Assembly (NCBI GenBank): GCA_964582295.1
Contig: CAZOQP010000001.1
Location: 9,588 to 73,587 of the forward strand
DNA length: 64,000 nt
Reading direction: 5' to 3'
DNA from: an uncultured Candidatus Saccharibacteria bacterium
GTDB lineage: Bacteria; Patescibacteriota; Minisyncoccia; Phycocordibacterales; Zambryskibacteraceae
The notes under the pieces were generated by a model. That model searched no databases. It worked only from the letters and a program-made list of their open reading frames with translations, and was not told where the DNA came from. Both the position numbers and the translations under genes were made by a program. Of this stretch, positions 7,979 to 28,454 are shown in pieces. Every line of letters starts with the position of its first letter. Position 1 is the first letter of the stretch.

Positions 7979-8449
7979 TTAGTTGTTGCAGTTAGTGGTC
8001 GCGGTCTGAAGGGCGTTCGTACGGCCAACAGAATTCCCGGTGGAATCTACGCACCAGTGGGTAAAGTTACCGTCAGACACTTTTAGAGGAACTGACACTG
8101 CCCATGCCGATCCGGATGAGTAACAACGGTTAGATGTTGAATCTCCTGCCGCTGTTTTTGCTGCGTTTATCATGCCGGAGATATTCGGGTCCTTAAAGAG
8201 GGTGCTGCTATCTGCGGGTGTCACAGAACACGCTGCCACGTTGAATGCCGCGCCGTAGCTGTTGTTTGAATCGTAGTAGAGTTCTGCCTGACCACGTACA
8301 TTCGCAAGGTTACCTTTAATGGCCGCGTTCGCACCCTTACCTCTGGCCGTATTCAAGCTTGCCAGAACGACAGAGGAAAGTACTCCTATAATCGCGATAA
8401 CAACTAGAAGTTCTATAAGGGTGAAGCCGCGGGCTTGATGTGCTTTCAT
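7979..8449 (-). CDS. pilA: major type IV pilin
   Basis: Start set at the internal Met (MKAHQARGFTLIELLVVIAIIGVLSSVVLASL). The purine-rich stretch AAGAAAGAAG lies upstream. Confidence 0.8.
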   Translation of the reverse strand: MKAHQARGFTLIELLVVIAIIGVLSSVVLASLNTARGKGANAAIKGNLANVRGQAELYYDSNNSYGAAFNVAACSVTPADSSTLFKDPNISGMINAAKTAAGDSTSNRCYSSGSAWAVSVPLKVSDGNFTHWCVDSTGNSVGRTNALQTATTNCNN

Positions 8450-18694: not shown

Positions 18695-18883
18695 TTATTT
18701 CTTCCTTTTCTTAGTACGAGCGTCGCGGATGATGAGTGCCCCGCCCGATTTCCTCACCTTCACCCTCTGCCTCTCCCTCCAGCCAAGGCTCTTAACCAAG
18801 TCGGCAGGCAAAGTAAGTCCAAGACTGGCCCGCCCCATCCTCGTCAGCTTCCTTGTATTTGTTTCTGTAGATTTCTTAGCCAT
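18695..18883 (-). CDS. AbrB/MazE/SpoVT-family DNA-binding protein (antitoxin-like)
   Basis: 62 aa. RMGRASLGLTLPADLVKSLGW...VKVRKSGGALIIRD matches a swapped-hairpin AbrB-type domain with a basic C-tail. Confidence 0.75.
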   Translation of the reverse strand: MAKKSTETNTRKLTRMGRASLGLTLPADLVKSLGWRERQRVKVRKSGGALIIRDARTKKRKK

Positions 18884-18915
18884 GTACGTACATATGTAAG
18901 TAGATATGTACGTAC
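18884..18915. promoter_or_regulatory. 12-bp inverted repeat GTACGTACATAT-N8-ATATGTACGTAC abutting the start codon of the AbrB-like gene (candidate operator)
   Basis: Perfect inverted repeat immediately 5' of the start codon at 18883. Confidence 0.5.
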
Positions 18916-18964
18916 ATTGTACATCAAACCTAATTTCATTCGAGTGATTACTTTAACAAAATGC

Positions 18965-19402
18965 TCATTTCTTATATAAAACAAAGAACGGTATTTCATC
19001 GATTCTTATATAGTTGAACATTTTATAATTTGCACGTCTAGCTGTTGAGGATAATTGACGCATTTTTAAATTTATTTTTGGAATAAAAGGATAGAATCTG
19101 ATTTCATGGTGTTTCTCCTTTTTATTTTTATCATCCCATTTAAAATTAGTTATAAGCGGCGGAACCATATAGCCTGATTTCATTACTTTTGAAATAATCT
19201 CCCACCCAGCACCAAAAATTATTGGCTTCGGTTTACTATTGTTTGTTTTTACTTGTGCACGAAAAAGGCATGCCTTACATTGAATATCATATAAGGGGTA
19301 ATTCTTGGGAAGCGCCATAAGTTTCTTTCCACAGTTAGGGCACGGAACAAGTTCTACAACCTCCAATTCTCCTGCATCCCCCGAATCCTTATTTTTACTC
19401 AT
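18965..19402 (-). CDS. DpnI-like PD-(D/E)XK nuclease catalytic domain (no winged-helix domain)
   Basis: 145 aa. PCPNCGKK...YDIQCKACLFRAQVK...GAGWEII...SSTARRANY parallels DpnI motifs (CPNCG, D..EFELK, APTARRAGW). QVK stands in place of ELK. Confidence 0.55.
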   Translation of the reverse strand: MSKNKDSGDAGELEVVELVPCPNCGKKLMALPKNYPLYDIQCKACLFRAQVKTNNSKPKPIIFGAGWEIISKVMKSGYMVPPLITNFKWDDKNKKEKHHEIRFYPFIPKINLKMRQLSSTARRANYKMFNYIRIDEIPFFVLYKK

Positions 19403-19467
19403 ACGAGCATTAGATCATCCAAGGTTTTATAACACAAGACTAGAAAATATTCCTAAATTAAAAATCT

Positions 19468-20205
19468 TTATTTTTGAGCAGCTATCATATCTTTAAGTTT
19501 TTCAATTGAAAGAATAATTGCCTTTTTTCGATGGATGATTCTGTGACAATTTGAGCATACGGGAACAACATTTTTCAGTGCATCCATGATTGACTGTTCA
19601 AGATTATCTTCATACGCAAAAATTGGTTTTAGATGATGAATTTCAATGAATCCTTTACCAGCAAGGCCATAGAACTCTTCAAAATTGAAATTGCAAGCTT
19701 CGCAATAAATTTTATTGTGCTTTTTGAAATGTTCTTTCGCAATCTCAATTAACTTCTTCGATCGAAATCTTGTTTTTACATGGTTAGATCTAATGAAACC
19801 TTCTTCAATAATTAGGTTAACGAAATTTTGATCAATAACTTTTTCTCTATCATTTTCAGAAAAACCATTAGTTTCTATGAAGTCAAAGCCGTCAATGTTG
19901 TCAGAAATATATTTTTTACCTAAGTCAGTTATTTTAAGTAACCCTTTATTTTTACTAATTGTATCGTAGGTTGCTAAACCTTTTTTAAATATACTTCTTT
20001 GGGAAATACCTCTATGAGAAATTATATTTCTTACTTTTTGACTAAAGCGAGTATCCTTGCGATTAGCACTCAGCTCAAGATCTTTCCCTTCTGGTTTTAA
20101 AGTTTCTGTTAGATAAATAATCAGGTTTGATGTCAAAATTCCATCCTCTTTTGACGAAAGATAGACTAACGTGGGCATTATTAAATCACTCTCACTGTAA
20201 ATCAT
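19468..20205 (-). CDS. winged-helix + HNH endonuclease
   Basis: 245 aa. The C-terminus CEACNFNF...IEIHHLKP...VCSNCHRIIH is an HNH domain. The N-terminal region resembles the DpnI C-terminal winged helix. Confidence 0.75.
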   Translation of the reverse strand: MIYSESDLIMPTLVYLSSKEDGILTSNLIIYLTETLKPEGKDLELSANRKDTRFSQKVRNIISHRGISQRSIFKKGLATYDTISKNKGLLKITDLGKKYISDNIDGFDFIETNGFSENDREKVIDQNFVNLIIEEGFIRSNHVKTRFRSKKLIEIAKEHFKKHNKIYCEACNFNFEEFYGLAGKGFIEIHHLKPIFAYEDNLEQSIMDALKNVVPVCSNCHRIIHRKKAIILSIEKLKDMIAAQK

Positions 20206-20207
20206 AT

Positions 20208-21455
20208 TTAGAAGTTATAAATTATAAGATGTTCAACCTCCCTATCATTACGACCTTTTATATTGTACAAATAAGTTTTATCGAAAGTCTTAATTTTAAT
20301 ATTTAACCTGTTTTTATATAAACCTAAAATAAATGGGGTTTTTTTGATTATCAGGATAAATTTTGCTTTTGTTTTATATAAGCAATTAGCTAATCTTTTC
20401 TGATCATTCTTATCAAAAGATTGTTTTTCGTAATCACTAAAATCTGTATCGTATGGTGGATCTAGAAAGATAAAATCTTTTGGTGATAAATCTGTTTTTT
20501 TAATTATCTCTTCAAAATCTACATTTTTAATAGAAGTATTTTTAAAAATTCTTTCTATATTCTCACTTAATATATAGTCAACTTTTTTACGAAAATCTTT
20601 TGAATTATAAGCTATGCCTCCGTAAGGAATATTAAAATGACCCTTGGAATTAAACCTAAACATTGAACCATAGCAAAATTCTCTTACAAAATAATAATTT
20701 GCAATCTTTTTTGATAAAGAAGTCGGATATCTATTTCCATTAAAATTCATCACATCCCTAAAGTGCATGTAGAAACCACTTCTAAACGCTGTTTCAATAT
20801 TCATACGTAGATCTCTGTCATCTATATTCCCTCGCTTTATTTCGATTTCCTTCACCCTCCCAAGTTTAGATATTAGGTTAGAAATGATTTGTTTTAATAG
20901 GTTCTGGTCATCAAGACAAAAACTTTTATGGAATAGTCCATTAAATTTCTTCTCCTCAGCTTTTAGGTAATTATTTACAATATTTTTTAAATTCTCCTTG
21001 GTGATTTTGTCTTTTTTGAAATCAGAATATAATTTTATTAATTTGTCCTCAAAAATATCAATATACTTTGGTATTTTTTCCCAATTATCAACGTAATCAT
21101 AAATTTCTTTTTTAAATTCTTTTTTATTTTTTTCTCCTTTTATAAATTTATAGAAAAAAACTAATTCTTCGCAGATATCGCTTACCACTGCTTCTTTGGG
21201 CTGCAATCTCAAAAAAACTGCACCGCCACCAAAAAATGGTTCTATATATCTATCAAAATCTGGGATTAAATGTTGTATGTATTTAAACTCTTCTGACTTA
21301 CCCCCCGGCCATTTAATAAGAGGCCTGGCATACACGGACTGATTTCCCAAGATGTCACCGCCATTAAAAAACCTAGATTCTTGTAGTACACTCCGATGCT
21401 TTTTATATGATGACAACGTACTCTTTTTTTTAGACCCAAAAAGAATTATCCCCAT
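20208..21455 (-). CDS. Dam-family (D12 class) N6-adenine DNA methyltransferase
   Basis: 415 aa with KWPGGK...EPFFGGGAV (AdoMet binding) and DPPY catalytic motif (FLDPPYDTDF). Confidence 0.85.
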   Translation of the reverse strand: MGIILFGSKKKSTLSSYKKHRSVLQESRFFNGGDILGNQSVYARPLIKWPGGKSEEFKYIQHLIPDFDRYIEPFFGGGAVFLRLQPKEAVVSDICEELVFFYKFIKGEKNKKEFKKEIYDYVDNWEKIPKYIDIFEDKLIKLYSDFKKDKITKENLKNIVNNYLKAEEKKFNGLFHKSFCLDDQNLLKQIISNLISKLGRVKEIEIKRGNIDDRDLRMNIETAFRSGFYMHFRDVMNFNGNRYPTSLSKKIANYYFVREFCYGSMFRFNSKGHFNIPYGGIAYNSKDFRKKVDYILSENIERIFKNTSIKNVDFEEIIKKTDLSPKDFIFLDPPYDTDFSDYEKQSFDKNDQKRLANCLYKTKAKFILIIKKTPFILGLYKNRLNIKIKTFDKTYLYNIKGRNDREVEHLIIYNF

Positions 21456-21542: not shown

Positions 21543-21995
21543 TTGGGAATTACAACCACATATCGACTCTATGTATACAACATTATTGGTCGTCGTGGGG
21601 ATATTGTTCCGATATTAGAACCTAAAATGCAGCTCAAATTCGAGAATCTTGATAAAAGTAAACAGAAATTAAGAGCTATCTACAAAGTTCACTCAGATTG
21701 GTTTGAGGTGCTTCAACCCAAGCCTACTAAGAGTAGGAATAATGTGGATTATTCCATCCAACTCAAAAGACTCCAGCTGCAACCTGGAAGATGGCCGCGT
21801 ATGAATAAAGATTACCTTTGTTCTCCCTATCAAAATCCGCTGAAGGGTTGTTACTGCCGAAGAGATGAGGACGCTGAGGAGTGCGAAGACGAGCCAATTC
21901 ATGAGTTAATTATAGCCCTCCTTGGAGATATTCGAGAAATTCACATGGCAGTAAAGATTAGCTGCTATAATATTAACTGTGACAACATCCCATGA
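21543..21995 (+). CDS. hypothetical Cys-rich protein
   Basis: 150-aa ORF in the AT-rich island, overlapping the start of the next gene by 4 nt. No recognised domain. Confidence 0.45.
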   Translation: MGITTTYRLYVYNIIGRRGDIVPILEPKMQLKFENLDKSKQKLRAIYKVHSDWFEVLQPKPTKSRNNVDYSIQLKRLQLQPGRWPRMNKDYLCSPYQNPLKGCYCRRDEDAEECEDEPIHELIIALLGDIREIHMAVKISCYNINCDNIP

Positions 21996-22627
21996 TCATG
22001 CATAAATTAAATTCAAAAAATAAATATGCATTCACGACTGATAAGCTAATCCGCCAAGAACTGAAGAAAACGATTGAAAAGAGATATAAGGACGCGCCTG
22101 TGAGAATTATCGAGGAGTTTGGTTTAGATGATCATGCTACGCGAATTGATATTGCTGTAGTAAATGGAATTTTACATGGTTATGAAATCAAGAGTGACTT
22201 GGATACACTAGGGAGGTTGCCGAAGCAAATGAGTTCTTATAACTCTATTTTCGACCAAATAACTTTGGTTGTTGGAACCCAGCATCTTTATGATGCTTTC
22301 AATATTGTGCCAGACCATTGGGGCATCATGGTCGCTAAGATAGATGGAAAAGGCTCTGTATATTTCAATCACATACGGACAGCCTCTGAGAATACCTCCC
22401 AAGAGAAACTTCCAATAGCAAGACTTCTGTGGAGAGATGAAGCCATCCATTTACTTGAAGATATTGGTTGCGCGCGAGGATATAAGAGTAAGTCAAAAGA
22501 TTTAATTCATAGCAGAATTTCTGATCTTCTTGATCTGAATACTCTCAAAGAAAGAGTGCGCGAGACGCTACTTCTTTCTAGGACTGATTGGAGAGCTGGG
22601 ACAGTACCAGTGCTATATGGTGACTAA
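21992..22627 (+). CDS. sce7726-family-like protein with PD-(D/E)XK nuclease motif
   Basis: 211 aa. RIDIAVVNGILHGYEIKSDLDTLGRLPKQ fits a D-x12-E-I-K restriction-endonuclease-like core. Family resemblance is from memory. Confidence 0.55.
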   Translation: MIMHKLNSKNKYAFTTDKLIRQELKKTIEKRYKDAPVRIIEEFGLDDHATRIDIAVVNGILHGYEIKSDLDTLGRLPKQMSSYNSIFDQITLVVGTQHLYDAFNIVPDHWGIMVAKIDGKGSVYFNHIRTASENTSQEKLPIARLLWRDEAIHLLEDIGCARGYKSKSKDLIHSRISDLLDLNTLKERVRETLLLSRTDWRAGTVPVLYGD

Positions 22628-23759
22628 TCCCTGCTGAGATCCAGTAGGTTGCTGCACCAGTTCCCTTACCTTTATTTTTTTCATCTTTCTTAACAAGTTC
22701 CATATAGGCAGGAAAATAATCTGACTTTTCTTTTATGCGCCTGTCGCCTTCGCTGAAAGCTTCCCCATAAAAGAAGGTACTATCATTCACGAGTTGTTGC
22801 GCATGTGCCAGATACTGATCGTTTCTCTTCTTCTCGCCTCTAAATATTATCCAGTTATTCTCGTGAGTGTATTTCAGCGTTGCAGACGCTTGCATGTATC
22901 GCAGTGCCTCGCTATGCATTGGATAGCGTATCGTATAATCTCCAAAAATTGGTTCTCGCACGAGTTTCCTGCCTTTTTTTGCAGCTAACCATAACTGCCA
23001 GTCATTGCGCGCCTCCATGCATGGACTATCTTCCACTTTGAGATGCCCGACATTCACAGGAAATGATCCGCTAGCAAAGATGACTGCTCTCCAAGCACTT
23101 AGGTTATGAATTTCCTGCACGTTTGAGAACAATTCTGCATATGACGCTTTTGTAGCATCATCGAGATATTTAATATCTAGGAGTAAATCTATTTGGTTTT
23201 CTTTGATGCCGGTCTCAACAACAAAGCTTCTCAATTTTGAGTTCAGATCATCAACCTTTTTCAAATCTGATAGCGTAACTCGTATGCAGATACCAACGAT
23301 AGTGCCTTTCTTGAACTGCTGCACAATTTCGTTCGCAACTTCCTTATCATCGTTTAAGTAGACTACAGGTCTTATATCTACTCCTTTTGCGTGACAAGTT
23401 TCAGCAACCTTTTGGACGCTCTCGACCTTGAGATTTGTTGTTCCAGCTCCATCGTGGATAAGATTGAAATCAATGGTTGCGCTTAGCTTGCCACGGCATT
23501 TTTCAATCTCATCCGGAATTTCCTTCAGACGAAAGTTTTTATACTTCTGAACCACCTCGTTATGTATCTCTTCTTCCGATTTACGAACTCTGGTCTTCTT
23601 ACCTTCAATAACAACAGTTTTATCCTGTGAAACACCGGGTAATACAATTTCAAGAACAGGGAGCAGATTGGCTCTATCTTTTTCAGGAACATTCGTCAAA
23701 GCCGCGATCTCAGCAGCTCGCCATTTAAGAATTGGGCTGTATAAGTAATTTTCTTTCAT
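22578..23759 (-). CDS. sce7725-family-like (beta-protein-like) partner protein
   Basis: 393 aa. N-terminus YSPILKWRAAEIAALTNV...LPVLEIV. Convergent with, and overlapping, the sce7726-like gene. Assignment tentative. Confidence 0.5.
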   Translation of the reverse strand: MKENYLYSPILKWRAAEIAALTNVPEKDRANLLPVLEIVLPGVSQDKTVVIEGKKTRVRKSEEEIHNEVVQKYKNFRLKEIPDEIEKCRGKLSATIDFNLIHDGAGTTNLKVESVQKVAETCHAKGVDIRPVVYLNDDKEVANEIVQQFKKGTIVGICIRVTLSDLKKVDDLNSKLRSFVVETGIKENQIDLLLDIKYLDDATKASYAELFSNVQEIHNLSAWRAVIFASGSFPVNVGHLKVEDSPCMEARNDWQLWLAAKKGRKLVREPIFGDYTIRYPMHSEALRYMQASATLKYTHENNWIIFRGEKKRNDQYLAHAQQLVNDSTFFYGEAFSEGDRRIKEKSDYFPAYMELVKKDEKNKGKGTGAATYWISAGISHHIALVLSQLSNQS

Positions 23760-23764
23760 ATCAG

Positions 23765-24997
23765 TTAAGCTGAATTAAATTCAGGAAAATACTTACGAAC
23801 TTTCGCTTCGCCAACTACTTTGCTCAGACGTTTGAAATCTCTTTCAAACCGCATTCTTCCCGCGATGATAGCAACATGTACACCCAATTCCTTTGCCAAA
23901 GATGTTGCGGCAGTCTTGGATGGAATTAGTTTTGCGGGGCTAATTTCCCATTTCTCCGTAGGAACAAGTGCTTCACCGGCCAAGCTATCTGCTTCGTGCT
24001 CCATTACTCCAATATCTCTACCTTTGATTTCATCGAGTTCGTCATAAAACAACTCACTATCGTTGTTCATGTGAAGTGCAACATGAGCCAACTCGTGCAT
24101 GAGCGTAAACCAGAAGTTATCTATACGGTCGTACCTAAGTGTCAGCCCTATTATAGGATTGTCTTTATTAAGGAAGATTGCCGCTCCGTCAAGTTTCGTT
24201 TTTTTAAACTGTTTTTCAATAACCAAAATAATTCCGTTATCTAGGAGAAACTTTTGCGCCAGAATCGGCGCACCGTCCTTAACACTTAGCTTGGCGAGAT
24301 CTTTCATGAAGTTGAGATTTACCGTGCTAGATTTATATTTCTTCTGTACTTTAACTTTTTGCGCTTTATAGAGGACGCAACCAAGCCACGCCGCGAGAGC
24401 TTGTTTATTTGTTGTTGGAGAAGTTCGGTAGTTTGTTTGTCTAAGCAAAGCACCAAAGTTCAGACTTGCATGATTAAGTGGTGAGAAAAATCTAGAGACT
24501 ACAGCCATTCGACTATCTTCTTTGGGACTGGTATCGTTGAGATACCCACGACTTTTTATTTCCTTGATGACGTCTAGGTGTATGTTTTCAAAGAGATCTT
24601 CTGTCTCTTCTGCAGGCTGTATAAGCACCTTAGCAGGTATACTTAGTTCTTTTTCAAGAGTACGGATCATTTTAAGAGTTAGAGGCGTTTTTCCAGAAAA
24701 TACTTCTGACACCTTACTCTTGCTGCCAATGTAGTGAACCATGTCAGAATCTTTGAGACCCATTTGTTCCATTCTGAACTTGATAGCCTCGACAGGATCA
24801 GGGAGAGAAGAAGGAAAATGGCTCTTTTCATAATCCTCAATCAAGGTGGCTAGCAGGTGGAGTTTGTCTGCTTCAGCAGAACCATTTTTTGGATTCATCA
24901 AAATTAGGCTCTCAAGTATTGCAAGAGCTTCCTTGTGATCTGCTTCTGTTTTAATTATTTTTATTTCCATAAAATTAAGTGATTTTCCACTTTTCAT
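23765..24997 (-). CDS. HigA-like XRE-HTH antitoxin fused to ImmA/IrrE-family Zn-metallopeptidase
   Basis: 410 aa with an N-terminal HTH and a C-terminal HEXXH (HELAHVALH) COG2856-type domain. Confidence 0.75.
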   Translation of the reverse strand: MKSGKSLNFMEIKIIKTEADHKEALAILESLILMNPKNGSAEADKLHLLATLIEDYEKSHFPSSLPDPVEAIKFRMEQMGLKDSDMVHYIGSKSKVSEVFSGKTPLTLKMIRTLEKELSIPAKVLIQPAEETEDLFENIHLDVIKEIKSRGYLNDTSPKEDSRMAVVSRFFSPLNHASLNFGALLRQTNYRTSPTTNKQALAAWLGCVLYKAQKVKVQKKYKSSTVNLNFMKDLAKLSVKDGAPILAQKFLLDNGIILVIEKQFKKTKLDGAAIFLNKDNPIIGLTLRYDRIDNFWFTLMHELAHVALHMNNDSELFYDELDEIKGRDIGVMEHEADSLAGEALVPTEKWEISPAKLIPSKTAATSLAKELGVHVAIIAGRMRFERDFKRLSKVVGEAKVRKYFPEFNSA

Positions 24998-25262
24998 ATT
25001 CAGTGTGAGTGCCGATTTTCTTGACCAAAACCATCTGATTTTCGTAATCGATAATCACCCACAGCCGGTACCTGTTGCCACATATGTTAAATATCGTGCT
25101 CTTGTTTCCCACGGAGTCTGCAGTCGGGAATTTCTGCTTCAGTTCGTGAGGGGTCTTCCATGAGGCATCCTCGATTTCGCTCTCCCAGCTTTCGATCTTG
25201 CTCTTTGCGTCTGTATGCTGCCGTTTGAAGTCGTGCAGGGGTTGCTTACCTAGTAATATCAT
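24975..25262 (-). CDS. higB: HigB-family type II toxin (RelE/ParE superfamily)
   Basis: 95 aa. IFNICGNRYRLWVIIDYENQMVLVKKIGTHTEYEK matches the HigB signature. Sits upstream of, and overlaps, the HTH gene as in higBA. Confidence 0.8.
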   Translation of the reverse strand: MILLGKQPLHDFKRQHTDAKSKIESWESEIEDASWKTPHELKQKFPTADSVGNKSTIFNICGNRYRLWVIIDYENQMVLVKKIGTHTEYEKWKIT

Positions 25263-25289
25263 GGCTTGTAACGATATTTCACATTTATA

Positions 25290-25310
25290 ATTGTTCCCGA
25301 TTCAGGAACA
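25290..25310. promoter_or_regulatory. palindrome TTGTTCC-cgattca-GGAACAA upstream of higB (candidate operator)
   Basis: 7-bp inverted repeat about 30 bp upstream of the higB start. Confidence 0.35.
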
Positions 25311-25448
25311 ATACTCTATGTGATAGACTAATGCAAGCGTTTCAAAAGAAGGAAATGGTTTAGGAGATCAGTCAATACCGTTCCCTTTTTAAGTTACTAA
25401 ACTATAAACGTAAGAACCGACATTTTATGCCGGTTCAAGCATTGAAAT

Positions 25449-25617
25449 CAGGCGGAGGGGATGGGAATTTCACTGCTCGCCCCTCGGCAAGCTCGGGGCT
25501 GCGCTTTAAAACCTGCGGGTTTTAAAGTTTCCACCACGGGAAACTCCCGTTTCCCGACCTCATCGAGTCTGAGGACTCTCAGAGTCTAAACGACCCTTCC
25601 CCGGTTCAAATCCCATC
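25449..25617. repeat. hairpin-rich element built from inverted partial copies of the tRNA-Ser 3' end
   Basis: GGCGGAGGGGATGGGAATTT (5' end) and GGTTCAAATCCCATCCCC (3' end) are inverted and direct near-copies of the tRNA-Ser T-arm/acceptor. Internal perfect hairpins: CTTTAAAACC-tgcg-GGTTTTAAAG, GGGAAAC-tccc-GTTTCCC, GAGTCTGAGGACTC. Confidence 0.6.
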
Positions 25618-25663
25618 CCCATAAACAATTTTAAAATATCAAAAGATATTGAAAATTGTCTTG

Positions 25664-25752
25664 CGGAGGGGATGGGATTTGAACCCATGCGGGATGTATT
25701 AGACCCCGACGGTTTAGCAAACCGTTCCGTTAGACCGCTCCGGCACCCCTCC
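25664..25752 (-). tRNA. tRNA-Ser (anticodon GCU), class II with long variable arm, CCA not encoded
   Basis: The reverse complement reads GGAGGGGTGCCGGAGCGGTCTAACGGAACGGTTTGCTAAACCGT CGGGGTCTAATACATCCCGCATGGGTTCAAATCCCATCCCCTCCG. Anticodon loop UUGCUAA. Confidence 0.85.
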
Positions 25753-25828
25753 ATTGCTCCGCCAATTTATCACATTTTCCCCTTCTTTTCTCCTCAATTT
25801 CCATTCCAATCCCTTTCACCTCTCCCAC

Positions 25829-25876
25829 CCCACAATCTATTCCAGTATTCTCAAGAATACTGGAATAGATTGTGGG
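25829..25876. promoter_or_regulatory. 48-bp palindrome (22-bp perfect stems, loop TCAA) upstream of the ArsR-family regulator
   Basis: CCACAATCTATTCCAGTATTC-tcaa-GAATACTGGAATAGATTGTGG, about 55 bp upstream of the regulator start. Confidence 0.5.
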
Positions 25877-25930
25877 TATGATATAAAATTTATGGGTGTA
25901 AAATTTGCAGGTATAGATATAAATATACAT

Positions 25931-26200
25931 ATGAAAAATTTTAGACAACTCGAGCGATTGGTAAAAGGATTCGCCAATCACCGTAGAATCGAGATCCTCA
26001 ATCTTCTCGATAAGACTCCGGAACTTTCAGTATTTGAGGTTGCCGAAAGATTGAAGATCAACTTCAAGACTGCTTCAGAACACATCCTCCGTCTTGCTAT
26101 CGCCGGCCTGGTGGTGAAAAGAAACGAAGGAAATAACGTGCGACATGCACTTACCAACACCGGAAAATCTATTCTCAAATTCTTGAGAAGACTAGAATAG
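25931..26200 (+). CDS. ArsR/SmtB-family winged-helix transcriptional regulator
   Basis: Start set at the internal ATG (MKNFRQLERLVKGFANHRRIEILNLL...VFEVAERL...RHAL). The track ORF 25754..26200 runs through the upstream palindrome. Confidence 0.7.
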   Translation: MKNFRQLERLVKGFANHRRIEILNLLDKTPELSVFEVAERLKINFKTASEHILRLAIAGLVVKRNEGNNVRHALTNTGKSILKFLRRLE

Positions 26201-26253: not shown

Positions 26254-28380
26254 ATGCTTGATGAACTCTTTCGACTGAATCCGGCTCAGAAATCCGCCCT
26301 GAAAAAACTGGGTATCACTTCCGTTGAATCTCTCCTTTACCATATCCCCACGCGCTACGCTTCTTTTGATGGGAATAATTCCATAGCGAGCGCGCGGGCA
26401 GGAGAAGATATCGCGCTCATAGTAAACATAGAAAAAATAGAGACCAAAAAAGGATTCCGCTCAAAAATACCAATGGCAACAGGGCGCGTATCAGACCCCA
26501 CAGGGAAAATGGACGTAGTGTGGCTTCGCCAGCCGTACATTGCACGCATGTATCTTGCCGGTTCCACCATAAAAATCTCTGGCAAAGTTTCGGAAAGGAA
26601 CGGAAAGATCTCAATGGTGAACCCTAAAGTGCATCCGCTCACAGGAGAAGAGAACACTCCAATCTTTAGCGGCAAAGAAGGAGAAAGTTTGACTCCTGTA
26701 TATGCGGAAAGCCGCGGAGTGACAAGCGAATGGCTGCGGAATGCGGCTATTCGTCTCATAAAAAACAAACTGCATGAAGCTATAGAAGATCCAATACCGC
26801 CGGAAATGCTTTCTCGTTTTAATCTGCCTACTTTGAAAACCGCTTTTGTGTGGGCGCACATGCCGAAAAAACACGAGCACGCAGAAGCCGCTCGCAAGCG
26901 CTTTGCATTTGAAGAAGTTTTTTTCATACAGTTGGAAAAGCAGAAAGAGCGTGCGGAATGGCAAGCCCATCAGGCATTCGTTATTGAACCGGCAGAAGAA
27001 ACAGAAAGATTCATGGAATCGTTCCCCTACTCGCTCACGGCGGGACAGAAAAAAGCTATTGCGGATATTTTCGGGGATTTTGGCTCGGGTCGGCCGATGG
27101 CGCGGCTTCTTGAAGGCGACGTCGGCTCCGGCAAGACGGCCGTGGCGGCCGCCACGGCCTACGCCACTATCCGCACCCGGCCCAAAGGGCAAACTTTCGG
27201 AGCGCTTCAGGTGGCATACATGGCGCCCACAGAAATACTGGCATCCCAGCATTTTGAATCCTTCATACAATATTTTGTGGGTTCAGGAATTCAGATAGGC
27301 CTCATTACCGGTTCCGGCTGCAGAAAATTCCCGTCCAAAATAAAACGAGACGGCTGGACGGATATTTCCAGAACACAATTATTGAAATGGGTTGAGAACG
27401 GAGAAATACCAATTCTCATAGGTACGCATGCGCTCATACAAAAATCCGTGAAATTCAAACACTTGGCATATGCTGTGGTGGACGAGCAGCACCGCTTCGG
27501 CACGCGCCAGCGCGCGGCCTTGATACAAAAAGACGGCCGCGCGCCGCATCTTCTCTCCATGACAGCCACCCCTATTCCCCGCACATTGGCTCTCACGGTG
27601 TTTGGCGATCTTGATCTCACAGTGTTAGACGAAATGCCGCCGGGACGCAAACCAATAATGACCAAAATAGTGCCGCCGGATCAAAGATTTCATGCATATG
27701 AAGAAGTACGAAAGGAATTGACAGCGGGCAGGCAGGCGTATGTAATCTGCCCGCGTATAGACGAGCCGGATCCGGACAAGGAAATGGCAGTGCAGGCAAA
27801 ATCGGTGAAAGAAGAAGCGGCACGCCTCAAGAAAGAAGTTTTTCCTGAATACGAGATAGGAATTTTGCACAGCAAGATGAAGCCCTCGGAAAAAGATGAA
27901 GTAATGAAAGAATTTTCGGAAGGGCGCATACATATTTTGGTCGCAACATCGGTTGTGGAAGTGGGAGTGAACGTTCCGAATGCCACGTCTATCATCATTG
28001 AAGGTGCAGAAAGGTTCGGCCTGGCACAGCTTCATCAGCTGCGCGGACGTGTGGTGAGAAGCACTCATCAATCACGCTGTTTCGTGTTCTCTGAAGGAAC
28101 GAGTGAAAATACTTTTAGACGTCTGAAATCTTTTGAAAAAGCCAAAAATGGTTTTGAATTGGCTGAATTTGACCTGGAAACACGCGGTGCGGGAGACCTT
28201 GCAGGCGACAAGCAGTGGGGAGTTACCGACCTCGGTATGGAAGCCCTTAAAAATATAAAGATGGTTGAAGCGGCACGGAACGAAGCCAAAACCATAATTG
28301 AAAGCGATCCGGAGCTTTCAAAACATCCATCTCTCCAATCTCACCTGTCCGGACGCCGAACTAAAATTCATTTGGAATAG
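26254..28380 (+). CDS. recG: ATP-dependent DNA helicase RecG
   Basis: 708 aa with wedge domain, Walker A GDVGSGKT, DEQH box and a C-terminal helicase domain. Confidence 0.93.
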   Translation: MLDELFRLNPAQKSALKKLGITSVESLLYHIPTRYASFDGNNSIASARAGEDIALIVNIEKIETKKGFRSKIPMATGRVSDPTGKMDVVWLRQPYIARMYLAGSTIKISGKVSERNGKISMVNPKVHPLTGEENTPIFSGKEGESLTPVYAESRGVTSEWLRNAAIRLIKNKLHEAIEDPIPPEMLSRFNLPTLKTAFVWAHMPKKHEHAEAARKRFAFEEVFFIQLEKQKERAEWQAHQAFVIEPAEETERFMESFPYSLTAGQKKAIADIFGDFGSGRPMARLLEGDVGSGKTAVAAATAYATIRTRPKGQTFGALQVAYMAPTEILASQHFESFIQYFVGSGIQIGLITGSGCRKFPSKIKRDGWTDISRTQLLKWVENGEIPILIGTHALIQKSVKFKHLAYAVVDEQHRFGTRQRAALIQKDGRAPHLLSMTATPIPRTLALTVFGDLDLTVLDEMPPGRKPIMTKIVPPDQRFHAYEEVRKELTAGRQAYVICPRIDEPDPDKEMAVQAKSVKEEAARLKKEVFPEYEIGILHSKMKPSEKDEVMKEFSEGRIHILVATSVVEVGVNVPNATSIIIEGAERFGLAQLHQLRGRVVRSTHQSRCFVFSEGTSENTFRRLKSFEKAKNGFELAEFDLETRGAGDLAGDKQWGVTDLGMEALKNIKMVEAARNEAKTIIESDPELSKHPSLQSHLSGRRTKIHLE

Positions 28381-28454
28381 TCCGCCCGCTTGGACTTGAA
28401 CCAAGGACCCTCGAGGTATAAGCTCGATGCTCTAACCAACTGAGCTACGGGCGG
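28381..28454 (-). tRNA. tRNA-Ile (anticodon UAU), CCA not encoded
   Basis: Canonical cloverleaf: CCGCCCG-TA-GCTC-AGTTGGTTA-GAGC-A-TCGAG-CTTATAC-CTCGA-GGGTC-CTTGG-TTCAAGT-CCAAG-CGGGCGG-A. Anticodon positions 34-36 are UAU. Confidence 0.8.

Follow-up and report, generated by a model that had tools for sequence, protein, structure and literature searches.

The question raised by this locus is whether two convergent, overlapping genes in an AT-rich island represent an uncharacterised conflict system or belong to an anti-phage system that is already known. The pair lies in a stretch of 64,000 nucleotides of contig CAZOQP010000001.1 (hereafter the window) from an uncultured Candidatus Saccharibacteria bacterium. 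A first-pass annotation of the window had described it as an sce7726-like protein with a restriction-endonuclease-like core and an sce7725-like partner which, together with a Cys-rich open reading frame (ORF) upstream, were proposed as a candidate uncharacterised defence or conflict system. The analysis reported here shows that the locus is a variant of a known defence system and that every protein in it belongs to a known family. These family identities are secure. The locus (21963-25336) is probably one four-gene anti-phage cassette consisting of a PD-lambda-2-type operon (genes A, B and C) and a convergent gene for a cII nuclease (gene D), working by a mechanism that we infer below from these genes and their relatives.

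Both ORFs of the pair were present as annotated, with the peptides IDIAVVNGILHGYEIKSD and YSPILKWRAAEIAAL...LPVLEIV and a convergent overlap of 50 nt (Table 1). The 211-aa protein of gene D matched the NCBIfam sce7726_fam model (NF033832) with 157.1 bits against a cut-off of 70, and the PADLOC 'cll' model with an E-value of 4.6e-26. An identical database protein and its homologues carry the precomputed Pfam tag PF26915 (Phage_P4_cII), and BLASTP aligned the protein with cII of phage P4 at 29% identity (E=1e-13). In the structural model, which has a predicted local distance difference test (pLDDT) score of 87.8, the nuclease core shows the canonical alpha-beta-beta-beta-alpha-beta order, and a helical domain (residues 139-203) makes up the C-terminal part. 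Four residues, E42, D53, E65 and K67, are invariant in 58 cII homologues, and all of them are kept in P4 cII despite 24-29% identity, which is the pattern of an active PD-(D/E)xK site. The 211-aa protein combines the PD-(D/E)xK fold with the catalytic E...D...ExK residues and is a true sce7726/Phage_P4_cII protein with an intact catalytic core; its sce7726 likeness and restriction-endonuclease-like core had been proposed. A sequence-profile search against the PDB yielded no relative of either cII or its partner.

The 393-aa product of gene C had been assigned to an sce7725 (beta-protein-like) family. The beta part of this assignment is correct, as the protein scored 187.5 bits against Pfam Beta_protein (PF14350, cut-off 27), with residues 7-386 aligned to profile positions 1-341/342. 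It also matched the PADLOC models PD-Lambda-2_C (PDLC03984; 8e-37, positions 4-360/377) and 'beta' (1.7e-9), and BLASTP aligned it with P4 beta at 24% identity (E=5e-6). The sce7725 label, in contrast, has to be dropped. The NCBIfam sce7725 model (NF033831) gave no match to the 393-aa protein even at E<=10, and its faint N-terminal match was to the E. coli plasmid beta only (E=0.1, 12 bits, cut-off 60). The invariant residues of beta make up an enzyme-like set at the face of its modelled triosephosphate isomerase (TIM) barrel. The median identity to the window proteins across 59 complete loci was 49.5% for cII, 51.5% for B, 52.1% for A and 33.2% for beta. Beta is the fastest-evolving component of the cassette, and such divergence would fit a protein that meets phage factors.

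Genes A, B and C are adjacent and in this order on the minus strand, with a 23-nt overlap between A and B and a gap of 5 nt between B and beta. The product of gene A matched Pfam HigB_toxin (3.1e-28) and, over its full length (residues 1-93/94), PADLOC PD-Lambda-2_A (PDLC03981; 2e-34). The product of gene B matched PADLOC PD-Lambda-2_B (PDLC03982; 4.8e-135, positions 1-398/402) and Pfam Peptidase_M78 (2.4e-10), and more weakly PADLOC capP (4.4e-8). It has an intact HExxH motif (MHELAH), of which H301, E302 and H305 are invariant in the alignment, and shares 38% identity with its counterparts in PD-lambda-2-type loci of E. coli. Matches of gene B to Stx phages were restricted to the N-terminal 120 residues and have no bearing on the question. 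The 'toxin-antitoxin module' beside which the pair had been placed is not a separate module; it is genes A and B of a PD-lambda-2-type operon of which beta is gene C.

Vassallo et al. (2022, Nat Microbiol) have reported that PD-lambda-2 of E. coli ECOR42, a system with a beta protein, protects against lambda-vir (PMC9519451). B of the E. coli system is toxic alone, A neutralises B, and beta is required for defence (PMC9519451). The window operon and PD-lambda-2 both consist of a HigB-like gene, a gene for an Xre-type helix-turn-helix (HTH) and ImmA/IrrE M78 protein, and a beta gene, in the same order and on one strand; as far as sequence can tell, the A-B-C part agrees with PD-lambda-2 on every point. 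The window differs by the fourth gene, cII/sce7726, and its 50-nt convergent overlap with beta, and its beta shares no more than 23-25% identity with the E. coli proteins.

This difference leads to satellite phage P4, whose gop-beta-cII genes were reportedly a subject of Ghisotti et al. in 1990. The RefSeq genome of P4 lists cII as 'sce7726 family protein' and beta as 'beta family protein', and the two genes converge. Rousset et al. (2022) have shown that P4 gop-beta-cII protects against lambda and P1, and that Gop is toxic without beta, which neutralises it (PMC9122126). The toxicity of gop-beta-cII is triggered by the phage gene orf184 (bioRxiv 10.1101/2023.04.06.535777). Because beta and cII are the pair found in P4, where gop-beta-cII is a published anti-phage system, the pair is not functionally uncharacterised. 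The earlier statement that it has no characterised function was out of date, since both P4 gop-beta-cII (PMC9122126) and PD-lambda-2 (PMC9519451) are anti-phage systems. Gop-beta-cII of P4 (DefenseFinder 'Gop_beta_cll') resembles the window in its convergent beta/cII pair and in having a toxic module upstream of beta in one operon, but in the window this module is HigB-like plus Xre/M78 and not gop. A phmmer search with P4 Gop gave no match in the window-related loci, Gop matching itself only. In addition, beta and cII of P4 lie 27 nt apart with a terminator between them and do not overlap.

Stand-alone beta/sce7726 pairs are found on the E. coli plasmid pSTEC1024_3, in phage Rac-SA53 and on Rhodococcus plasmids. 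These pairs also converge, with overlaps of 32-41 nt, and cII of pSTEC1024_3 is 41% identical to that of the window, but they lack HigB-like and M78 genes. Gene B can further be compared with CapH/CapP of the cyclic-oligonucleotide-based anti-phage signalling system (CBASS) and with ImmR/ImmA-type regulators, which likewise bring an Xre-type HTH together with an M78 peptidase and, as predicted here for the window, have a palindromic operator at the operon promoter. Unlike these, gene B fuses HTH and M78 in one protein, and its E. coli homologue is toxic in its own right, with the HigB-like partner neutralising it (PMC9519451).

The arrangement was then compared across genomes. When one genome per species was scanned, at least 533 candidate stretches proved to have relatives of cII, and the best 80 loci, picked by similarity to the window cII, were analysed. 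They span Patescibacteria, Gammaproteobacteria, Planctomycetota, Omnitrophota, Acidobacteriota, Nitrospirota, Chloroflexota, Bacteroidota and others, about a dozen phyla. Beta and cII were convergent and overlapping in 80/80 of these cII-anchored loci, with overlaps of 26-167 nt and a mode of 50 nt (38/80). The full A-B-beta-cII set was present in 61 of the 80. Eight had M78 without a detected HigB, mostly owing to contig ends, and 11 had beta-cII alone, four of them truncated and the rest being the most distant members, with other genes upstream of beta. In the closest metagenomic relatives HigB, M78 and Beta converge on Phage_P4_cII with a 50-nt overlap, and rhizobial plasmids are annotated with the same layout. 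Among the closest relatives of the window cII, including those in the candidate phyla radiation (CPR)/Patescibacteria, the arrangement met most often is the four-gene form. The proposed co-distribution of the two families is thus borne out, both by these loci and by plasmid matches to beta, 15/17 of which were co-distributed with cII. In these data cII was seen only beside beta; beta was also seen without cII, as A-B-beta in metagenomes, viral contigs and E. coli chromosomes. The literature search found no description of the four-gene form, of the universal convergent overlap or of a link between PD-lambda-2 and gop-beta-cII through the beta/cII core. The overlap in 80/80 loci, the cassette in 61/80 and this link may therefore be new.

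The overlap itself is conserved in both reading directions. The cII motif R-x-D/E-W-R lies antisense to the C-terminal beta motif Q-I/V-A/S-N-L, the information content is 1.33 bits/site compared with 0.55-0.89 in the flanks, and at the third codon positions of cII it goes up from 0.36 to 1.5 bits within the overlap. At the other end of the operon, the palindrome upstream of gene A (Table 1) is the sole perfect match in the 64-kb window. In 33/61 related loci a strict TTCC-N7-GGAA palindrome stands upstream of gene A, compared with an expectation of about one. The region before gene A in relatives has TTGACA, a spacer of about 17 nt and a TATAAT-like hexamer, with the TTCC-N7-GGAA palindrome coming next, and in the window the -10 element of the corresponding promoter-like site merges into the left arm of the palindrome. 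For cII, the pattern TGnTAnAWT occurs at most 110 nt upstream of the gene in 40/72 related loci, with a mean of 3.5 and a maximum of 8 after shuffling. The operon palindrome and the separate -10 element of cII argue for two separately controlled, convergent transcription units. An operator shared by the operon and cII was considered and rejected; a copy of the palindrome with three mismatches (21604-21624) was at chance level (4 seen vs 4.07 expected), and TTCC-N7-GGAA stands upstream of cII in only 1/61 loci.

The promoter of cII also bears on its role. The P4 gene was presumably named for a cII-type (lysogeny or clear-plaque) function, and cII could be a non-catalytic DNA-binding regulator that tunes the A-B-beta operon instead of an effector. 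The gene name, the helical C-terminal domain, the promoter element of its own with the antisense placement to the operon, and the fact that E. coli PD-lambda-2-type loci work without cII would all suit a regulator. Such a role is nevertheless very unlikely, given that the four active-site residues do not vary among the 58 homologues or in P4 cII and that the operator motif of the operon is absent from the cII promoter region.

For the four-gene anti-phage cassette, the following course of events may be proposed. In an uninfected cell, B would repress the operon through the TTCC-N7-GGAA palindrome, and A would hold the toxic B inactive, as the E. coli homologues suggest. Beta, judging from its divergence and its enzyme-like site, may sense infection and release or license the toxic activities, which would result in abortive infection. 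The invariant active site suggests that cII is an active Mg-dependent nuclease, and it may serve as a second effector that depends on beta, because it is found only beside beta. Since transcription of cII from its own promoter enters the beta gene at its 3' end, and that of the operon likewise enters the 3' end of cII, the two units may also be coupled by antisense transcription or collision.

Several observations weigh against this proposal. No cII-like ORF was found in any frame within 3.5 kb at two E. coli PD-lambda-2-type loci, and the published clone of E. coli PD-lambda-2 carries only about 390 bp of flank per side, too short for a full cII. Defence in that branch therefore does not require cII. 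No terminator-like site was found between cII and beta or in the overlap, so that the transcript 3' ends must run into each other, and RNA fold z-scores of the overlap were only -0.8 to -1.5, with no significant structure; the antisense coupling is thus deduced from the geometry of the genes. The structural matches of beta are generic TIM barrels that indicate no substrate, and its role as a sensor is drawn solely from its faster divergence. Finally, the parts occur separately. Plasmids and viral contigs carry A-B pairs with neither beta nor cII, while an E. coli plasmid, a Rac-like phage, Rhodococcus and metagenomes have beta-cII but no A-B.

The separate occurrences would be expected if two independent selfish modules lay side by side, a HigB/HigA-like addiction module (A-B) and a beta/cII toxin-antitoxin module with the cII nuclease as toxin and beta as antitoxin, both stabilising the island and neither acting against phage. 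The restriction of cII to the vicinity of beta, as for a toxin and its antitoxin, and the reported neutralisation of a toxin by P4 beta (PMC9122126) point the same way. This arrangement is unlikely, however, as A, B and beta form one operon in 61 of the 80 genomes that match best, which come from about a dozen phyla, A-B in E. coli depends on beta for its anti-phage phenotype (PMC9519451), and both parent systems protect against phage (PMC9519451, PMC9122126).

The generic TIM-barrel matches also bear on a modification-restriction scheme, in which beta would be a nucleic-acid-modifying barrel resembling tRNA-/DNA-guanine transglycosylases and cII would cut unmodified incoming DNA. TGT-family (tRNA-guanine transglycosylase) enzymes have a structural zinc site with Cys/His ligands. 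Beta has a single invariant Cys and no conserved Cys/His ligand set, and TGT and DpdA rank among its matches no higher than dozens of unrelated TIM barrels. Beta moreover functions in the E. coli PD-lambda-2-type loci without cII, and its rate of evolution would be unusual for a housekeeping-like modification enzyme. The scheme is accordingly held to be highly improbable.

The four-gene cassette, which remains the preferred explanation, can be extended to a broader one. Beta and cII could form an autonomous, ancient two-gene defence core into which interchangeable toxin modules (Gop, HigB-like plus Xre/M78, and others) plug, and in which the obligatory overlap of the convergent 3' ends would switch between a guard and a kill state through antisense transcription or transcriptional collision. 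This extension is possible but rather doubtful. If it is true, PD-lambda-2 and Gop-beta-cII would belong as branches to a single superfamily that occurs in hundreds of species, CPR bacteria among them, and the three-gene PD-lambda-2 of E. coli would be a reduced form. The comparison already joins two separately published systems, PD-lambda-2 and P4 gop-beta-cII, through a common beta/cII core. In annotation pipelines the locus would be called PD-Lambda-2, and the nuclease would remain an orphan 'sce7726 family protein'. Experimental handles are provided by the invariant nuclease site, the enzyme-like TIM barrel, the operator palindrome, the separate cII promoter and the conserved dual-coding overlap, and a tractable four-gene homologue could help to show what beta senses and what the nuclease cuts.

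Some relatives show further features around the cassette. At both E. coli loci a SIR2-family gene lies close downstream of beta in the place of cII (L169 5796-7313, L170 7315-7789). Genes of the serine recombinase/resolvase family lie directly upstream of cII in two loci (L035 6280-7893, L062 3434-4741) and about 3.4 kb from it in a third (L007 12142-13701), suggesting transfer of the cassette on small integrative elements. The clinical Acinetobacter pittii plasmid pNDM-AP_882 (L092 461-13414) has an ImmA/IrrE-beta-sce7726 locus in which beta is apparently split. The segment that splits it carries blaNDM-1 and is flanked by IS30-family elements, and only the C-terminal beta fragment still overlaps the sce7726 gene.

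The Cys-rich ORF of 150 aa that had been included as a third partner is of a different nature. Its stop does overlap the start of cII as described (ATGA, 21992-21995), but the ORF is not a partner in the system. It contains six Cys in 150 residues, all within the last 58. A word-based search gave two partial homologues only, and an exhaustive search of 1.84 billion representative proteins gave 40 clusters of 58-101-aa ORFs that match residues ~17-72 only; the remaining 78 residues, which include all six Cys, had no homologue among these proteins. The partial homologues are short ORFs in unrelated genomic contexts. The ORF was absent from all 80 cII loci, which also had no recurrent co-directional ORF upstream of cII. 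The partial homology, the absence from 80 loci and the cII promoter element inside the ORF led to its rejection as a part of the system, and as a 150-aa protein it is probably not real.

A part of this ORF (21615-21722) is a conserved core of about 50 codons, FEPKxRLKFExLDKSIQxLRAIYKVHPEWFEVPKPKSxKGKNxVDYSI, after which a stop follows in relatives. The core is the C-terminal part of the 40 short-ORF clusters, whose N-termini are unrelated. Its DNA is 85% identical to positions 8112-8219 of another sequence (L002), the contexts vary, and Rfam gave no match to it. A small gene is one possibility, a conserved non-coding or mobile element another.

Table 1. Features of the locus and its surroundings (positions in the window).
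Feature	Position	Strand	Remarks
Gene A, HigB-like (RelE-fold), 95 aa	24975-25262	-	First gene of the operon
Gene B, fusion of N-terminal Xre/HigA-like HTH + C-terminal ImmA/IrrE M78 metallopeptidase, 410 aa	23765-24997	-	
Gene C, beta protein (P4 beta family), 393 aa	22578-23759	-	Modelled TIM barrel
Gene D, cII/sce7726-type PD-(D/E)xK nuclease-fold protein, 211 aa	21992-22627	+	Convergent with the A-B-C operon
Dual-coding convergent overlap of the cII and beta 3' ends, 50 nt	22578-22627		
Perfect palindrome TTGTTCC-N7-GGAACAA upstream of gene A	25291-25311		Putative operator for the gene B HTH
Promoter-like site of the A-B-C operon (TTGCAT, 17 nt, TATTGT)	25308-25336	-	Proposed by analogy with relatives, not a tool call
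Extended -10 element TGCTATAAT	21963-21971	+	21 nt before the cII start codon, within the 150-aa ORF
150-aa Cys-rich ORF	21543-21995	+	TTG start
tRNA-Ser(gct)	25663-25752		Adjoins the AT-rich region
Dam-family N6-adenine methyltransferase with ~110-aa insertion	20208-21455	-	
HNH protein	19468-20205	-	
145-aa protein matching the DpnI catalytic part only ('Dam-replacing' family)	18965-19402	-	
MazE/AbrB-type ORF, 62 aa	18695-18883		

The cassette sits in a foreign AT-rich defence island. In this respect the earlier description of the setting holds, the G+C content being 28-42% over 19-25 kb compared with ~47% in the surroundings. An Rfam search of 18.0-26.5 kb gave tRNA-Ser as the sole above-threshold match. 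The 3' end of this tRNA-Ser(gct) is directly repeated 211 bp away (25452-25469, 18 nt, 94% identical), and an inverted tRNA-like 3' fragment (25579-25620) lies between the two copies. These repeats look like scars of integration at the tRNA. A repeat matching the tRNA-Ser 3' end was not found on the far side of the island (~19 kb).

The very AT-rich three-gene module on the minus strand next to the cassette (18965-21455, 28-31% G+C) has an odd pairing of a Dam-type methylase with a DpnI-like nuclease of the methyl-directed type. Beyond it, the MazE/AbrB-type ORF had no identified toxin partner, and is followed at 18875-18917 by overlapping palindromes and a 17-nt direct repeat (ATGTACGTACAT motifs). 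On the other side of the cassette, the ORF at 25754-26200 contains a perfect 23-nt inverted repeat with a 2-nt spacer (25829-25876), just before its HTH-like part (residues such as RRIEILNLL); the repeat could be an operator or a terminator. Further along, at 28380-28454, a tRNA-Ile with the anticodon TAT (UAU) is predicted, a kind of tRNA that is uncommon among bacteria.

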